From assembly GCA_016840165.1 (NCBI GenBank), contig JAEOSU010000051.1, positions 223,090-287,089 of the forward strand: a stretch of 64,000 nucleotides of DNA, read 5' to 3'. The position numbers were made by a program, and so were the translations under genes. The notes below the pieces were generated by a model that saw only the letters and a program-made list of their open reading frames with translations, had not been told where the DNA came from and did not search any database. The stretch is from Promethearchaeota archaeon (GTDB lineage: Archaea > Asgardarchaeota > Lokiarchaeia > Sigyniarchaeales > SOKP01). Shown piece after piece: positions 49,539 to 56,166 of the stretch; position 1 is the stretch's first letter; each line of letters starts with the position of its first letter.

Positions 49539-50177
49539 TTAAAAAATTACATTTTGAATAATATGCTTTTTATTATAGGACACAACTTTCACTCCTAATT
49601 CTCTTAAATTTTTTGTTATTTCTGGGCAAATTTCCTCACAAATATCTTCTTGGACAAAATGAACAAATACAATAACATTCTTGTCATAGGATGCTGCTAA
49701 ATCTAACATTTTTTTAACTATCCATTGGGGTCTTAGTTGTAAACTAAGAAAGTTCTCCTTTTCCTGAATCTCGACTCCTAGCATATCTATCCAATTTTTC
49801 AAACTAAGTCCTTTGTATGATTCCTTATCTTTCATGCTTTCATATTCTTCAAATAATTCTGTTTGAAGTTGCTGTTTTTCTATAATTTCTTGATATAAAT
49901 ATCCCATTGCATAATCTGGGATATCTACTTGAAAGTAAGGAATGTTCAGTTTCTCTAATGTTTGTGCAAAAGGAGTTTTACTAAATTCCCTCATGATTAC
50001 TTGAAAGTCAACCGTTACAAAATTAACGCCATTCTTCTTTAAAAATACTATTAATTTTGATGGATCCATATCCTGAAAGTATTTAGCATTCTCTTTTGAG
50101 CTAATAAATGCTGTAATTTTCCTTTTTTTTATTGGTTTTAATTCTAAAACTTCCATTTTTTTATACACCTCATTCAA
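49539..50177 (-). CDS. Hypothetical protein, paralogue of 48786-49517 and 44984-45226
   Basis: Same shared motifs; likely start at MEVLELKP (50156) after a GAGGTG RBS. Confidence 0.65.
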   Translation of the reverse strand: MNEVYKKMEVLELKPIKKRKITAFISSKENAKYFQDMDPSKLIVFLKKNGVNFVTVDFQVIMREFSKTPFAQTLEKLNIPYFQVDIPDYAMGYLYQEIIEKQQLQTELFEEYESMKDKESYKGLSLKNWIDMLGVEIQEKENFLSLQLRPQWIVKKMLDLAASYDKNVIVFVHFVQEDICEEICPEITKNLRELGVKVVSYNKKHIIQNVIF

Positions 50178-50207: not shown

Positions 50208-50443
50208 TTGATAATCCTCTTGTCAAAATAAAAAGAATTTGATAAGAAAAATTTCTGATATTTTGATAATTCTATTAATCAAAACTTCAAATCGTACAAT
50301 TTTTCTTGTTATATCAAAAATCTACATTCCCTTGCCCAAAGTTGATAATCAATTTTTTGAATTCAAAAAGGTCATGATCAATTTCAGACAAATTTAAATA
50401 GTTGGGTAACAATCATTATCATGGAGAAAAATAAATTTGTCAA
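50208..50443. promoter_or_regulatory. Divergent promoter region with six TTGAYAA half-sites, including copy 2 of the shared 19-bp element (50236-50254)
   Basis: TTGATAA at 50208, 50239, 50263 and 50342; TTGTCAA at 50220 and 50437; palindrome TTTTTGAATTCAAAAA at 50354-50369; TATA-like TTTAAATA at 50393-50400. Confidence 0.55.
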
Positions 50444-50492
50444 AATAATAAACTAACAAAAAAGATAATCAAAAAAAAGGTGGGGGGATTGT

Positions 50493-53036
50493 ATTACGGA
50501 AATTTATTCAATCTTGTCACATCCCTTTCGTAGGAAAATTCTTTTCATATTAGAAAAAGAAGGCTTTATTCCCTATACAGATTTAATGGAGAGGTTAGGG
50601 GTAGATCAAACGGGTCAATTGAACTTTCATTTAAAAAAACTTGGTTCTCTCATCGATAAAGATAAAAAGTCTTATTTCTTGACAGAGGACGGAAAGAGAG
50701 TCCTTAAATTAATCAATGTCAATAAGCGTATCCTTTCTGGGGAAGATCTTGAATATTTAGGAAAGAAGGGAAGTGAAATTAACCGTATTGGAGTAATTAT
50801 ATGCAATTGCAATACAGAAATATCCAATGTAATAAACATTAATGCATTAGAGCATTATATTGAAAAGTTAGATGGGGTAGTTTCTGTTAATGTTTTTGAC
50901 AATTTATGTCAAGAAAAAAACTTAAATAAAATAACTAGCTGGACTAAAGATAATTTTTTAAATAAAATCGTGATAGCCGCATGTTCACCAAAAACCCATC
51001 AGAATATTTTTGAACGAATTTTTAAGGGGATAATTGAACGGGCTAATATTGAAATAGCTAATATTAGAGAGCAATGTTGTTGGGTACATCATTCAAATGA
51101 TCAACAATTTGATCCATTATTAGCATTAAAGAAAGCGCAACTGCTCGTTGAAGCTGCAGTTGAGCGGATCAAAATGCAAAAGAAGATATTAATTAAAACA
51201 GTCGAGGTTGAAAAAAGTTGTGCGATATTGGGTGGTGGTATTGCAGGTATGACTTTAGCATTGAATCTTTCCTCTGCTGGCATTAAAGTATATCTTATTG
51301 AAAATTCACCAACTTTAGGAGGAAAGATAGCTAGATGGTATCGGGTTTCTAATATGGGTGATTGTTCAATTTGCTTTACTTCAGAGCTCATAGGTGAAAT
51401 TGTTAAAGAAAAGAACATTGAAATTTTTACTAATACTGAAGTTGAAATGGTCTCTGGAGATGTAGGAAATTTCACTCTAAATTTACTAAAAAAACCCCGA
51501 TTTGTTGACGAAAAGAAGTGTACAGGATGTAAACAATGTATAAGTGTATGTGCCAAACAAAAAGTGGATGATTATGAATTTGGACTGAATAACTGTAAAA
51601 TTATTCATTTTCCCTTCCAAAACTGCTATCCATATGCTCCGATAATCAATGAAGATGATGTCAAAAGCTGTTTAGATTGTAGAATTTGCGAAAGGGTATG
51701 TATTAATAATGCCATTGATTTAAATCAGAAACCTGAAGAGATACAAATCAAGGTAGGGGCAAAGGTTATAGCTATAGGGGCTGATCTTTATAATAAATTA
51801 GATGAATATCATTATAATCCTAAAAAAGATATTATAACGAATGCTCAATTCGAACGCCTTTTATCCGCTGATGGGATAACAGAAGGTAATTTGATTCGTT
51901 TGTCAGATGGAAAACCTATCAAATCAATCTCAATTATCCAAGAGGTTGGACCGTCATCTTATCTTACAGAATATTCGGAAATTTTGGCAAAGAAGTATAT
52001 TGAAGATATTAAAATAAAAAGTCCCGATTGCGAGGTAAACGTTTTTTATGATTTAAGTAAGTTAAAAGACAAAAATGAAGTTTTGTTGCGAACAACTAAT
52101 CCAAGTTTTATGTATGCCAATAGCTTATCTATTGCATCCAATAAACATCTAAATTATGTAATTGCAGATAATATAGAATTTCCAAGCGATTTGATCGTAT
52201 TAAATGTTAAATATGTGCCAAATAAAGATTTAAAGATTCTTCGTAGATTTATGGACTTTACATTAATGGACGATGGGTTTATGAGTGAAGAAACATTAGC
52301 CTCAGGGATATATGGTATTGGTACGATATTTGGTCCCTTAAGTTATCAATCAACCATCTCAACTACAAATAGGGTTGCCCTAAAAGTAATTTCTTTGCTA
52401 CTTAATGAATATTTAATAGCTGAATTCACTGGAATTGAAATCAATGAAGATAAATGCGGATTATGCGGATTATGCGTTAAATCCTGTCCCTATAATGCTA
52501 TAAGTATCGAATCAGATAAAATTACTATCGATAAATTCAAATGCAAGGGATGCGGGACCTGTGCAAGTGTATGTCCTACTAATGCTATTGAAATGAATAT
52601 CGATACCTCAAAAAAGATTATGAAGACTATTGAAATATATTCAAAATTCAATAAAGGTCCAAAAATTATAGCTTTTTGTTGCCAATCATGTGGTTATGCT
52701 GCAGCTGATGATGCAGGTCTTAAAAAGGAAATCTATCCTCCCCATATTTTTGTTGTACGCATACCATGTACAGGGCGGTTAGATACGGAATTTATCTTTA
52801 AATCATTTGAGATGGGATTTGATGGAGTGATGGTGATAGGCTGTAGAAAAGATGCTTGTAGATATATCGATGGTATAGAAAAAGCAAAGCAGAGAGTTCA
52901 GTTATTAAAAAAGATATTAGAACCAAAATTTAGAAATAGGATTATTTTAATGAATTTAAATGCCGTTGAAGGCCATAAATTCGCTGAAACGGCTAATAAA
53001 TTTTATAATCTTTTAAATGAGGTGGCTAAAAATTAA
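50493..53036 (+). CDS. Winged-HTH - HdrA-like flavoprotein - MvhD fusion (start uncertain: ATT 50493 or TTG 50514)
   Basis: wHTH: SILSHPFRRKIL...TGQLNFHLKKL...YFLTEDG. HdrA: RIGVIICNC, AACSP, NIREQCCWVH, GGGIAG, DCSIC and ferredoxin motifs. MvhD: AFCCQSCGY, RIPCTGR, GCRKDACRY. Confidence 0.88.
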   Translation: MTEIYSILSHPFRRKILFILEKEGFIPYTDLMERLGVDQTGQLNFHLKKLGSLIDKDKKSYFLTEDGKRVLKLINVNKRILSGEDLEYLGKKGSEINRIGVIICNCNTEISNVININALEHYIEKLDGVVSVNVFDNLCQEKNLNKITSWTKDNFLNKIVIAACSPKTHQNIFERIFKGIIERANIEIANIREQCCWVHHSNDQQFDPLLALKKAQLLVEAAVERIKMQKKILIKTVEVEKSCAILGGGIAGMTLALNLSSAGIKVYLIENSPTLGGKIARWYRVSNMGDCSICFTSELIGEIVKEKNIEIFTNTEVEMVSGDVGNFTLNLLKKPRFVDEKKCTGCKQCISVCAKQKVDDYEFGLNNCKIIHFPFQNCYPYAPIINEDDVKSCLDCRICERVCINNAIDLNQKPEEIQIKVGAKVIAIGADLYNKLDEYHYNPKKDIITNAQFERLLSADGITEGNLIRLSDGKPIKSISIIQEVGPSSYLTEYSEILAKKYIEDIKIKSPDCEVNVFYDLSKLKDKNEVLLRTTNPSFMYANSLSIASNKHLNYVIADNIEFPSDLIVLNVKYVPNKDLKILRRFMDFTLMDDGFMSEETLASGIYGIGTIFGPLSYQSTISTTNRVALKVISLLLNEYLIAEFTGIEINEDKCGLCGLCVKSCPYNAISIESDKITIDKFKCKGCGTCASVCPTNAIEMNIDTSKKIMKTIEIYSKFNKGPKIIAFCCQSCGYAAADDAGLKKEIYPPHIFVVRIPCTGRLDTEFIFKSFEMGFDGVMVIGCRKDACRYIDGIEKAKQRVQLLKKILEPKFRNRIILMNLNAVEGHKFAETANKFYNLLNEVAKN

Positions 53037-53796
53037 AGTAAAAGTCATCATCGAATCTTTAACTTCTTGTAGTGGATGTATTTTAACATTGCTTTCATTA
53101 GATGTGTTTCCTCAATTTTTAGAAAGAACTGAAATTACTTATTTTCCATTTATATCAGATAAAAAAGAATTTGTAAAGTCAGACATAGCCCTAGTCGAGG
53201 GATGTGTTTCAGAAGCATCTCAAATAGAAACTTTAAAGACTATACGTAAAAATTCTGTAAAATTGTGTGCACTAGGAACTTGTGCTGCATTTGGAGGTAT
53301 TATGGGGCTTTCGAAAAGAAAAAAATCGGATCCAATTTCAAAATTTGTAGATGTCGATTATGTAATTCCAGGTTGTCCTCCTCCTATTAACTTATTAGGA
53401 AATGCTTTAATGGATCTTGTCGAAAATAAACCTATAAAGTTACCAGAAAAGAATATGTGTTATTCTTGCCCCTTGAAGGGGGAAATGAAAAAAAACCTTA
53501 ATACGCCAATCTTAAGACTTTTCCCTCAGAATTCTAAATTGAACTCAAAAGAAAATGAACAAGAATGTTTTTTAAAAAGAGGAATATTATGTTTAGGTCC
53601 CATAACTCGAGAAGGATGTGATCACAAATGTATTGAACTGGGTATTCCATGTGAAGGATGTTTAGGACCTGTTTCCAAAGATTATACCTCCAATCTAATT
53701 AATTTTTTAAGTCTAGTACCTCTTTCGAATAAATTGAAACGATATTCTGGTATCTTTAATCGATTTTCAAAACCGGTATTAAAGAGGTGTTCATAA
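53017..53796 (+). CDS. mvhG: [NiFe]-hydrogenase small subunit, group 3c (MvhG-like)
   Basis: SCSGC, VEG, GTCA, PGCPP, CYSC, CFL..G.LCLGPITREGC..KC...GIPCEGC.GP. Confidence 0.88.
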   Translation: MRWLKIKVKVIIESLTSCSGCILTLLSLDVFPQFLERTEITYFPFISDKKEFVKSDIALVEGCVSEASQIETLKTIRKNSVKLCALGTCAAFGGIMGLSKRKKSDPISKFVDVDYVIPGCPPPINLLGNALMDLVENKPIKLPEKNMCYSCPLKGEMKKNLNTPILRLFPQNSKLNSKENEQECFLKRGILCLGPITREGCDHKCIELGIPCEGCLGPVSKDYTSNLINFLSLVPLSNKLKRYSGIFNRFSKPVLKRCS

Positions 53797-55098
53797 TTGC
53801 AAAAAGTAATTGAAGTATGTCATCGAGTAGAGGGTCAGGGAAAGATTAACTATTTTGTACAAAATGATAAAATAGATCACGTTAATTTTGTACTATCAGC
53901 CGTGAGGGGATTTGAAAATATTTTAATAGGTAAAAAACTGCAGGATATACCTAGAATTGTCTCAAGAATTTGTGGATTGTGCCAAGCTTCTCAAACAATT
54001 GCAAGTTGTAAAGCGATTGAAGAAATATATGGAATAAAACCTAGCTTTCAATCAATTTTGATTAGGAGACTTCTCATGTCAGCAGAATTAATTAAATCCC
54101 ACATAATTCATTTTTTCTTCCAATGTCTTCCTGATCTTTTAGAGCTCTTTCAAAATGAAGATAAAAATATGGATATTTTTAACTTGATCAAATTAGATCC
54201 TCAATTAACCTCAAGCGTTTATGATTTAATAAAAGCCGCAACAGAAATAAGTCATATTTTTGGTGGAAGAATGATTCATTTGATTACTCCCACCCCTGGT
54301 GGAATGATATATAATCCTTCTAAAAAAAATATTTTACTTGTAAAAAGATATTTACAAAAAGCTTCTACCAATATTGACTATATTCTTCAGAAGTATGTAG
54401 ATCTATTCTCTCAAAAACAACCACCTGAAGATTTTAATTTACATAGCTTAAATATGTTAGGAATGCTTAATGAAGGTCATTATGATCGCTATAATGGAAG
54501 TATACACATAATGCAATCTAATGGAAATGAGATTGAATTTGATGTTTTAGATTATGAGAATTATTTTACCAAAGATGCGAACTTATTTGGGATAAAATTC
54601 TTAATAGATGATCATAAACCAATTTTAACAGGGCCAATTGCGCGATATAGCCTTTGTAGAAATAATAGTCTCAGTATGTACAATTCATTATTGAAGCATT
54701 TTGATATGAGATGGAAAAATAATATATTATTTGTAAATTTTCTACAATTATTAGAGATTTTTAATGAAATTAAGACAAGTGCCGCTATGCTTGAACATAA
54801 TAATTTAGAAAATCATGAATCACTACCTAATCTTAATACTATCGCAAATTATAATGGCATTGGAAATGTAGAAGCTCCCCGTGGGACTCTTGTCCATCAT
54901 TATCATGTAAATAAATCTAATATAGTTGATAAAGTTAAATTATACATACCAACTGAAATAAATTTCCCTTTATTGAATGAAAGCATTAAAGAGTATGCTC
55001 AAAAATTATATGAAAAAGAAGATATTGCGACACTTAATAGAAAAGTTCAGCGCATGGTTAGAGCTTTTGATCCATGCATAGCCTGTGCTACACATTAG
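53797..55098 (+). CDS. mvhA: [NiFe]-hydrogenase large subunit, group 3 (MvhA-like), without C-terminal extension
   Basis: RVEG, RGFE, L1 RICGLC, EAPRGTLVHHY, L2 RAFDPCIACATH directly followed by TAG. Confidence 0.88.
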   Translation: MQKVIEVCHRVEGQGKINYFVQNDKIDHVNFVLSAVRGFENILIGKKLQDIPRIVSRICGLCQASQTIASCKAIEEIYGIKPSFQSILIRRLLMSAELIKSHIIHFFFQCLPDLLELFQNEDKNMDIFNLIKLDPQLTSSVYDLIKAATEISHIFGGRMIHLITPTPGGMIYNPSKKNILLVKRYLQKASTNIDYILQKYVDLFSQKQPPEDFNLHSLNMLGMLNEGHYDRYNGSIHIMQSNGNEIEFDVLDYENYFTKDANLFGIKFLIDDHKPILTGPIARYSLCRNNSLSMYNSLLKHFDMRWKNNILFVNFLQLLEIFNEIKTSAAMLEHNNLENHESLPNLNTIANYNGIGNVEAPRGTLVHHYHVNKSNIVDKVKLYIPTEINFPLLNESIKEYAQKLYEKEDIATLNRKVQRMVRAFDPCIACATH

Positions 55099-55134: not shown

Positions 55135-56166
55135 ATTTTCGATTCATTACAAAATACTCCTGAGGAATCTGTAGAACCTGAACAATTATGCGAGGTATTT
55201 TTACTTTATTTTGATGAAGAATTTGGTCACATGCCCCTTCTTATTACTCCAGATGAATCAGTGAGAGATAATGCGGATATTATGCGTTTAGTTAAGATCC
55301 ATTCTATCTGGTTTCTTGATATTAGTGATCAAGCTTCCCCTGATCGTATAGATTTAGAATATCAAGGAAAAATGTATTTTGCAAAAAAATTTATGGTTCC
55401 TTCGAGAAGAGAAAAACGTCGAACTGGTTCTGAAGGCGAACTTTATGAAACTATAGTATTAATTTTATCGTTACCAATTGATATGGATATTTTTGGAGGA
55501 GAACTGTTGAAAAAAATATCTGAGCGGATAATCAAACACTTTAAATTAAAACTATCTTTTTTAATTGAAGCTGAATTGGCTAAAATCAATGTGATAAAAA
55601 CTTCTAAACTAACAGAATCTATTAATATCGGTGAGGCAATAAAAAACCGTATCAAGGTATTAATTAAAAATACTTGTTGTCATTATTTCCAATCTGTTAT
55701 TAAAAAAACTGATGCTACAACCTTCAAACTCCAAAAAGCAATATCCTATTTATCATTAAAAGGGGTTCCAATTAATTATATAGTAAGTGAAAATGAGAGT
55801 TTCGATTTCTCAAATATAAAAATCTTTGAATCAAAAGCTTGTGTGGATGAATTATATCGATTCCAAAAAGACTTCTCAATTATAAGAACAAATTTAGATT
55901 TGAGAACCCAAGAATTAGAAATCCTATTAAAGAATCAAAGCCAAAATATCTATCATCATTTAGAAATTAGAGTTATAGCGATACAAGATTTTTTTGAAAG
56001 TGAAATCTTGCATGAAGAAATTGATGAATGGCTTTCGGAAGAAGAAATCATGATCATTTTACCTGAAGTAACTACTACTCATGAATATTTATTGAGTATT
56101 TTGAATGGAGATTCAAAAAATACCCTCTTTAAACAGAAGATCAATATTTCTATTAAGGATAGTTAA
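55135..56166 (+). CDS. Hypothetical protein with N-terminal longin/uDENN-like domain (start probably upstream of ATG 55231)
   Basis: Frame is open from 55135. VFLLYFDEEFGHMP, mostly upstream of the annotated ATG, matches the uDENN FD...GP beta-hairpin pattern. Confidence 0.6.
   Translation: MFDSLQNTPEESVEPEQLCEVFLLYFDEEFGHMPLLITPDESVRDNADIMRLVKIHSIWFLDISDQASPDRIDLEYQGKMYFAKKFMVPSRREKRRTGSEGELYETIVLILSLPIDMDIFGGELLKKISERIIKHFKLKLSFLIEAELAKINVIKTSKLTESINIGEAIKNRIKVLIKNTCCHYFQSVIKKTDATTFKLQKAISYLSLKGVPINYIVSENESFDFSNIKIFESKACVDELYRFQKDFSIIRTNLDLRTQELEILLKNQSQNIYHHLEIRVIAIQDFFESEILHEEIDEWLSEEEIMIILPEVTTTHEYLLSILNGDSKNTLFKQKINISIKDS

Follow-up and report, generated by a model that had tools for sequence, protein, structure and literature searches.

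What does it mean for an [NiFe] hydrogenase when its large subunit stops exactly at the last metal-binding motif, leaving nothing for a maturation protease to remove? The question is raised by an operon in a DNA stretch of 64,000 nucleotides from a Promethearchaeota archaeon (assembly GCA_016840165.1, contig JAEOSU010000051.1, positions 223,090 to 287,089), hereafter the window, to whose first letter all coordinates refer. The operon encodes the large subunit together with a small subunit of MvhG type and a flavoprotein in which a predicted winged helix-turn-helix (wHTH) domain is fused to HdrA and MvhD parts. A preliminary description made from the sequence had placed the enzyme in group 3c and taken the absent tail as independent evidence for a sensory or low-activity hydrogenase. 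H2 exchange is central to ideas on the Asgard lifestyle and on the origin of the eukaryotic cell. We find that the tail-less end is a trait of a whole clade, and that the partners of the large subunit and a second hydrogenase in the genome lend more to the idea of regulation than the end itself.

The large-subunit C-terminus and that of its homologues

The open reading frame of the large subunit (Table 1) begins with TTG, overlapping the stop of the preceding gene, and finishes in ...RAFDPCIACATH followed by TAG GTA TAG. Both CxxC pairs that bind the Ni-Fe centre are present, Cys59/Cys62 on the N-terminal side and Cys427/Cys430 on the C-terminal side, and the score against the Pfam family NiFeSe_Hases (PF00374), 111.7 bits with a cut-off of 25.8, makes the protein a member of that family. 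Its best solved match is MvhA (190.6 bits over residues 5-433), and the best solved matches, namely MvhA, HoxH, FrhA and sulfhydrogenase, are all of group-3 type. The solved MvhA chains extend 24-25 amino acids beyond the His at which the query ends. In the HMMER alignment with MvhA (5odc_F), Gln14 lies opposite the His of RVEGHG and Gln66 opposite the His of RICGICQVAH; Gln63 is matched by a Gln and is therefore no deviation, which leaves two true changes of conserved His. Thus, the altered histidines reported in the preliminary description hold for RVEGQG and for the end of the L1 motif, and not for Gln63. The intact cysteines and the stop directly after the terminal His are borne out by the open reading frame, the alignment and independent contigs from three other studies: positions 55069-55098 are unchanged in the whole-stretch contig of run X5 and in an X9 contig spanning 54993-55300, and the sole difference in the X12 contig is two extra bases, GT, inserted immediately behind the stop codon (55098/55099), which leaves the protein unaffected.

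The TAG stop and the GTA TAG that follows it are the sole ground for considering that the gene was truncated recently, is a pseudogene, was misassembled or has a recoded stop, and nothing was found in favour of any of these. A homologue search returned 1535 proteins at E <= 1e-5, and in all of the best 120, which were examined at 48-99% identity, the protein ends at the same His of DPCxxCxxH. At the level of genome DNA, the stop comes directly after this His in 30/30 loci of the window's GTDB family, as TAA in 25, TAG in four and TGA in one. Since the same end is found throughout these homologues and loci, it is neither a recent truncation, for which the preliminary description had left room, nor a recoded stop; the three different stop codons rule out a recoding of TAG in the window, and the contigs from the other studies agree with the assembly. 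We give practically no credence to an artefact of any of these kinds. The tail-less end is an inherited state, common to every orthologue in the window's family.

The two glutamines differ in how widely they are shared. Gln closes L1 in 119 of the same 120 homologues, in the form CGLC[H/Y/S/Q/C]xSQ. The His of RxEGH is retained in 98 of the 116 homologues in which the motif was found, and it is replaced (by Q, R, N, C, S or Y) in the other 18, the closest relatives of the query included. Among 200 sampled genomes of the phylum, only those of the window's own family have orthologues of at least 45% identity; these occur in 29 of 40 other family genomes, and their identity to the query is 45-65%.

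Beyond the orthologues the length of the tail varies. Among 150 representatives at 50% identity, 27 have no residue after the motif, 56 have 1-12, 45 have 13-34 and one has more than 34, with no recognisable motif in the remaining 21 (fragments or variants). Tail-less group-3 large subunits also occur outside the Asgard archaea, in clusters named from Korarchaeota and Desulfobacterales, and relatives named from Hel-, Sigyn- and Jord/Freyarchaeota, to which the names of the sister clusters also point, carry 5-11 residues.

Placement among group-3 hydrogenases

In a FastTree phylogeny of 178 rows, all wHTH-linked and all Gln-type sequences fall in a clade of 40 rows with support 99, whose tails measure 0-11 amino acids against 20-34 in the canonical 3c-like rows. 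For 66 selected rows, a quick IQ-TREE search under a mixture model gave a branch supported at 99 by the Shimodaira-Hasegawa-like approximate likelihood ratio test (SH-aLRT), splitting 28 rows from 38, with the 7/7 rows that have an upstream wHTH-HdrA gene on one side and the 11/11 rows of other context on the other. The rows of the trees are a subsample: 23 were taken from the 120 near homologues, together with representatives 395-520 amino acids long and 20 open reading frames from fetched loci; the trees are unrooted and their rows bear no HydDB reference labels. On the 66-row tree a tail of zero after the His needs at least five changes, and an L1 motif ending in Gln needs two.

As placed by both trees, the large subunit belongs to a separate Asgard-only lineage of group 3, outside the canonical 3c clade in which the preliminary description had located it. 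It is encoded with MvhG, MvhD and HdrA as group 3c enzymes are, and departs from them in its clade, in the 20-30 residue cleavable extension and L1 His that it lacks, and in its score against the VhuA equivalog. The NCBIfam scores are far under their cut-offs (155.9 against 800 for VhuA, and slightly higher for ShyA, 161.3 against 700). A related Lokiarchaeota protein with CGLCHASQ, 29.7% identical to the query, has been typed as 3c (PMC11216029, supplement file 2, row 93), and excerpts of Liu et al. (bioRxiv 10.1101/2020.10.19.343400) describe Asgard group-3 clades apart from the characterised enzymes.

Twenty loci fetched from other Asgard families agree with this division. Eight of them, from two other families, encode large subunits 33-35% identical to the query, and in seven of the eight the gene order is wHTH-HdrA-MvhD, small subunit, large subunit, the eighth ending at a contig edge; with the window's own locus, the upstream gene is therefore this fusion in all eight loci with a readable start. 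One of these two sister families has an L1 motif ending in CSSAH and a tail of 7-8 residues. The other (L056-L059) has Lys for Arg in L1, K[VI]CGFCSAAH, and a C-terminus that reads DPCISC(S/T)SV plus 8-10 residues, without a His where cleavage normally occurs. The representatives P0128, P0148 and P0159, which are related to L056-L059, finish in DPCI(P/S)C and three residues, none of them His. None of the 12 loci at 26-30% identity has a wHTH; HdrA and MvhD are usually separate genes in them where Hdr genes lie nearby, and the tails are 20-30 amino acids long in 11, the twelfth being 3b-like with six. The long tail that the preliminary description ascribed to canonical 3c enzymes is thus real, in the solved MvhA as in these Asgard loci. 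It had also allowed that housekeeping Asgard MvhA proteins might generally lack the tail, whereas canonical Asgard 3c enzymes keep it and so does the genome's own VhuU (see below).

A missing tail together with Gln at the end of L1 recalls the regulatory hydrogenases, and the complex might accordingly be a dedicated H2 sensor of low turnover, like HoxBC/HupUV, with tail loss and the exchange of His for Gln as adaptations to sensing. We take Gln66 to correspond to Gln67 of HoxC, presumably the position meant in the work on regulatory hydrogenases that follows. The accessible text of PMC5665086 calls the L1 change of His to Gln characteristic of H2-sensing regulatory hydrogenases, and excerpts of PMC10073562 describe the turnover of the regulatory hydrogenase as low and D15H of HoxC as an exchange near the active site, Asp15 being a possible counterpart of the His of RxEGH. 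The loss of the RxEGH His in the closest relatives of the query and the predicted DNA-binding partner fit such a sensor too. On the other hand, the query is kin to group 3 and not to group 2, a histidine kinase is not encoded in the operon (no search for one was made elsewhere in the genome), and a full 840-residue flavoprotein of bifurcation type would be costly for a pure sensor. Neither the state of the tail nor the Gln tracks the wHTH fusion across the lineage, and the recurrent origin of the zero tail on the 66-row tree counts against it as well. We consider a dedicated sensor quite improbable.

The tail itself is weak evidence for a sensor, because its absence is clade-wide and recurs in catalytic enzymes: excerpts of PMC7294309 give 2b, 2d, 4c, 4e and 4g as the naturally tail-less groups, of which 4c, 4e and 4g are catalytic, and tail-less members occur in other group-3 clades. 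The independent weight that the preliminary description had placed on the missing tail is therefore lost.

The operon, its promoter and a second hydrogenase

By profile and by predicted fold, the N-terminus of the fusion protein is an ArsR/MarR-like winged helix. It scores 39.3 bits against Pfam DUF7347 (cut-off 27.6), and the structural model, with a predicted local distance difference test score (pLDDT) of 84-95 over residues 1-70, has helices at 4-16, 21-28 and 33-46, a wing at 47-56 and a further helix at 58-74. The Foldseek matches listed for this model are all winged-helix DNA-binding proteins (MarR, ArsR/CadC, PadR-like, YodB, NolR-DNA, AspA-DNA and a centromere-binding wHTH), and an alignment of 17 sequences has an invariant stretch ...G-x-LNFH-xx-K... 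in the recognition helix. The HdrA part is of full length, residues 87-707 aligning with 9-650 of the 659 residues of solved HdrA (8rvu_a, 344 bits); the best NCBIfam match of the fusion is HdrA2, at 564 bits under the cut-off of 1100.

The wHTH domain goes with the hydrogenase. In 26 of 41 family genomes the alignment of the fusion protein starts at residue 1 and its gene adjoins the hydrogenase; for the HdrA paralogues the alignment starts only at about residue 85-91, i.e. without the wHTH. In the 23 other genomes covered by both scans, hydrogenase and fusion are both present in 16 and both missing in seven, with no discordant case.

Relative conservation within the operon is uneven. Measured as identity to the window across seven genomes, the wHTH part is at 69-85%, HdrA at 66-81%, MvhD at 68-83%, the small subunit at 59-68% and the large subunit at 49-65%. 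The large subunit is the least conserved part in 7/7 genomes and the wHTH the most conserved in 5/7; the large subunit is the fastest-evolving part of its own operon.

The assembly, 99.7% complete in 105 contigs, contains the motif DPCxxCxxH only once, in the query. A second large subunit lies on contig C19, with the canonical His residues in RLEGHG and RICGICPIPHH and without the C-terminal motif, in a split [NiFeSe] locus of Vhu type (Table 1). There, a VhuG-like small subunit of 466 residues, whose C-terminal Fe-S part occurs twice, and the VhuA-like large subunit of 434 residues are accompanied by an HdrC-like gene, an HdrB-like gene with CCG domains, and a VhuU-like open reading frame of 50 codons reading ...RCYDC-U(TGA)-LSCAAH and then 21 further residues; such a VhuU frame was found in 3/3 loci examined. 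Selenocysteine read-through of the VhuA-like gene was considered and ruled out, its stop being TAA, and the separate VhuU gene was found instead. Neither group-4 (PF00346) nor [FeFe] hydrogenases were found in this genome. Across the family the VhuA-like protein is 80-93% identical, and it is present in 36/40 other family genomes, the query orthologue being absent from 11/40 of a different sample. In genome G008 (L073/L079) the VhuA-like protein shares 93% identity with the copy of the window's genome, against only 46% for the best VhuG-like match, and the small subunit may have been replaced or rearranged there.

The second enzyme also bears on maturation. The query has no extension after DPCxxCxx[HR] for a HycI/HybD-type endopeptidase to act on. 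The genome has a single HycI-family protease, on contig C4 (190 amino acids, 47.3 bits), and also encodes HypA, HypC and part of HypD. Of 41 family genomes, 35 gave a HycI match and 37 a VhuA-like one, and it is plausible, with an imperfect match between the two, that the HycI-type protease has a client other than the query, namely VhuU.

These observations have to be set against the simplest reading of the operon, an ordinary metabolic hydrogenase of MvhADG-HdrA type, bifurcating or confurcating, whose acceptor module is encoded elsewhere, whose tail loss is neutral and whose wHTH is autoregulatory or structural. None of the three proteins lacks any part of its cofactor-binding architecture, and the large subunit has the catalytic Glu (in RxEG) as well as the EAPRG Arg and the FDPC Asp. 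The many HdrA paralogues of the genome are in keeping with an ordinary enzyme. Published work on Asgard archaea, as far as excerpts of PMC11291895 and PMC11216029 go, takes group 3c with Hdr as bifurcating, and naturally tail-less catalytic groups exist (excerpts of PMC7294309). Against this, HdrB and HdrC adjoin the other hydrogenase and neither is found in this operon, the wHTH is mostly its best conserved part and the catalytic subunit its worst, the whole enzyme is missing from more than a quarter of the sampled family genomes in which the Vhu type is nearly general (on different samples), and the L1 His is replaced. A purely metabolic role is a serious possibility, about which we nevertheless remain doubtful.

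A region of 337 base pairs separates the operon from a divergent gene for a 212-residue protein and holds a TATA-like box and a palindrome (Table 1). By eye, an element of the type GAYAAY-N4-RTTRTC stands at the same place in 9/10 family loci, which makes the palindrome a candidate operator, offered as a lead only. The sequence TTGATAAT is not enriched within the window (17 matches against 13.8 expected).

Table 1. Coordinates of the operon, its motifs, promoter elements and neighbours, and of the second hydrogenase locus
Feature	Position	Strand	Remarks
212-aa protein, no known family	49539..50177	-	divergent conserved neighbour; no Pfam match
TATA-like TTTAAATA	50393-50400		upstream of fusion
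Palindrome GGTAACAATCATTATC	50405..50420		type GAYAAY-N4-RTTRTC; 4 nt after TATA-like box; candidate operator
wHTH-HdrA-MvhD fusion	50514..53036	+	840 aa; predicted wHTH 2-67 (DUF7347), HdrA ~87-707, MvhD 716-836
MvhG-type small subunit	53017..53796	+	259 aa; Cys motifs align with solved MvhG
[NiFe] hydrogenase large subunit	53797..55098	+	433 aa; without C-terminal extension
RVEGQG, residues 10-15	53824..53841	+	Glu12 retained; Gln14 where RxEGH has His
L1 motif RICGLCQASQ, residues 57-66	53965..53994	+	Cys59, Cys62; Gln66 replaces L1 His
L2 motif DPCIACATH, residues 425-433	55069..55095	+	Cys427, Cys430, terminal His433
Large-subunit stop codon	55096-55098	+	directly after His433
311-aa protein, no known family	55231..56166	+	downstream conserved neighbour; no Pfam match
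Split [NiFeSe] Vhu-type locus	C19, L078:2231-6629, outside window		VhuG/VhuA/HdrC/HdrB/VhuU

The two conserved neighbours may work with the complex or be among its targets. Of nine other family loci, seven have the 212-residue protein (59-81% identity), and it is weakly matched in three loci of another family; the 311-residue protein occurs in 12 family loci at 30-66% identity; an Atlas look-up of both gave only hypothetical clusters of Promethearchaeota. A TraB/GumN lead for these flanking proteins (0.81) was dropped as too weak.

The start of the fusion gene is doubtful. Its orthologues begin ATG GAT ATA TAT TCA..., six codons upstream of the TTG at 50514, and at the place of their ATG (50496) the window has ACG, with ATT just before; a run resembling a ribosome-binding site, GGTGGGGGG, lies at 50480-50488. 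The true start may therefore lie 6-7 codons upstream of 50514. As for the HdrA paralogues, there are up to 27 HdrA-like matches per family genome and 15 in the genome of the window (G000), and many of them carry 2-6 in-frame TGA codons, which suggests HdrA paralogues that contain selenocysteine.

Proposed role and comparison with known systems

We propose that the complex is an H2- or redox-responsive regulator, or 'trigger enzyme', and that Vhu-HdrBC is the main hydrogenase of the cell, a reading to which we give nearly an even chance. The regulatory idea gains support, as we infer from the sequences, from the wHTH fusion, the sensor-like Gln, the fast-evolving large subunit and the second, better-conserved hydrogenase. 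The possible sensory or low-activity character suggested in the preliminary description thus loses the tail as an argument and is better supported by the fusion, the relative rates and the second hydrogenase.

In the proposed mechanism the Hyp proteins would load the NiFe(CN)2CO centre into the large subunit without an endoproteolytic step, a route that we infer from established knowledge of naturally tail-less enzymes, and the HycI-type protease would serve the VhuA/VhuU enzyme, in which the VhuU precursor carries the 21-residue tail. H2 would be split at the Ni-Fe site, and its electrons would travel by way of the small subunit's three clusters and the MvhD domain to the flavin adenine dinucleotide (FAD) in the HdrA domain. 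Changes in the redox state of this flavoprotein would then alter the binding of the winged helix to a palindromic operator at the shared promoter. The logic of such a trigger enzyme is comparable to that of PutA.

Several observations weigh against this proposal. The sister families with the same wHTH operon retain the L1 His, and the accessible text of PMC5665086 states of this Gln in the regulatory hydrogenases that it 'seems not to be involved in H2 sensing'. The faster change of the large subunit could be due to other causes. The complete ferredoxin domains of HdrA and the full set of cluster motifs in the small subunit are what is expected of a working bifurcating enzyme. Foldseek gave the winged helix a probability of 1.00, but the E-values were weak (best 1.3e-3, none <= 0.001). 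Scanning the genome with a position-weight matrix derived from nine promoter palindromes gave 27 sites, not above shuffled controls (8 vs 11 per Mb), and no regulon is therefore defined; k-mer conservation in the promoters was not clearly above shuffles either, TTGTCAAA being found in 9/10 loci with a shuffle maximum of 10. Finally, HycI and the VhuA-like protein co-occur imperfectly over the 41 family genomes, with both in 33, VhuA-like only in four, HycI only in two and neither in two.

A stronger form of the proposal, which we consider rather unlikely, would make the operon the first archaeal H2-responsive transcription factor: the hydrogenase would directly reduce a DNA-binding flavoprotein, so that the partial pressure of H2 sets the occupancy of the promoter. 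Such a device would have evolved in group 3 independently of the bacterial 2b sensors, converging with them on the loss of the tail and on Gln for His, and with it Asgard archaea of Loki type could adjust their syntrophic metabolism to the H2 around them.

What is usually called 'group 3c MvhA' in Loki-type genomes covers two things, a conserved, tail-bearing [NiFeSe] Vhu-HdrBC enzyme and a faster-evolving, tail-less Gln enzyme with a wHTH-HdrA partner. Table S4 of PMC11216029 (supplement file 4) lists one abundant large subunit of MvhA type in L. ossiferum, at protein rank 13 and with no sequence, which may be of either the tail-less or the Vhu type. A group-3 lineage is added to the naturally tail-less [NiFe] hydrogenases, and the operon is a concrete candidate by which H2 sensing in archaea can be tested. 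In an incomplete literature search we found no paper that describes an Asgard [NiFe] hydrogenase as tail-less or sensory, Gln in its L1 motif, or a wHTH-HdrA fusion.

Among the known systems, MvhA/VhuA (5odc, 9sw2) resembles the query in the four Ni-Fe cysteines and in the MvhG-, MvhD- and HdrA-type partners encoded alongside. The query differs in having no tail of 24-25 amino acids, in the Gln of L1 and in lying outside the canonical 3c clade; furthermore, its HdrA and MvhD are fused and joined to a predicted wHTH, and its operon is without HdrBC. HoxBC/HupUV of group 2b share with it a naturally tail-less large subunit, a Gln where other [NiFe] hydrogenases have His and a link to a regulator, whereas the query is archaeal and of group 3, its sensing is putative, and its output would use the fused wHTH-flavoprotein and not a histidine kinase. 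The order of HdrA followed by a C-terminal MvhD is that of HdrA2-type fusions, as in HdrA2 of Methanosarcina and those of Loki- and Thorarchaeota, on which excerpts of PMC11237513 report with no mention of an N-terminal wHTH; the extra N-terminal wHTH, absent from the HdrA paralogues of the same genomes, sets the fusion of this operon apart. According to excerpts of PMC7294309 and PMC10073562, the Hyp machinery loads the regulatory hydrogenase without protease processing. In groups 4c (CooH), 4e (Ech) and 4g, too, little or nothing follows the last ligand motif, and maturation is by the canonical Hyp machinery (excerpts of PMC7294309); they are membrane-associated group-4 enzymes, of a kind that this genome was not found to encode, and the query parallels them in its C-terminus from within group 3.

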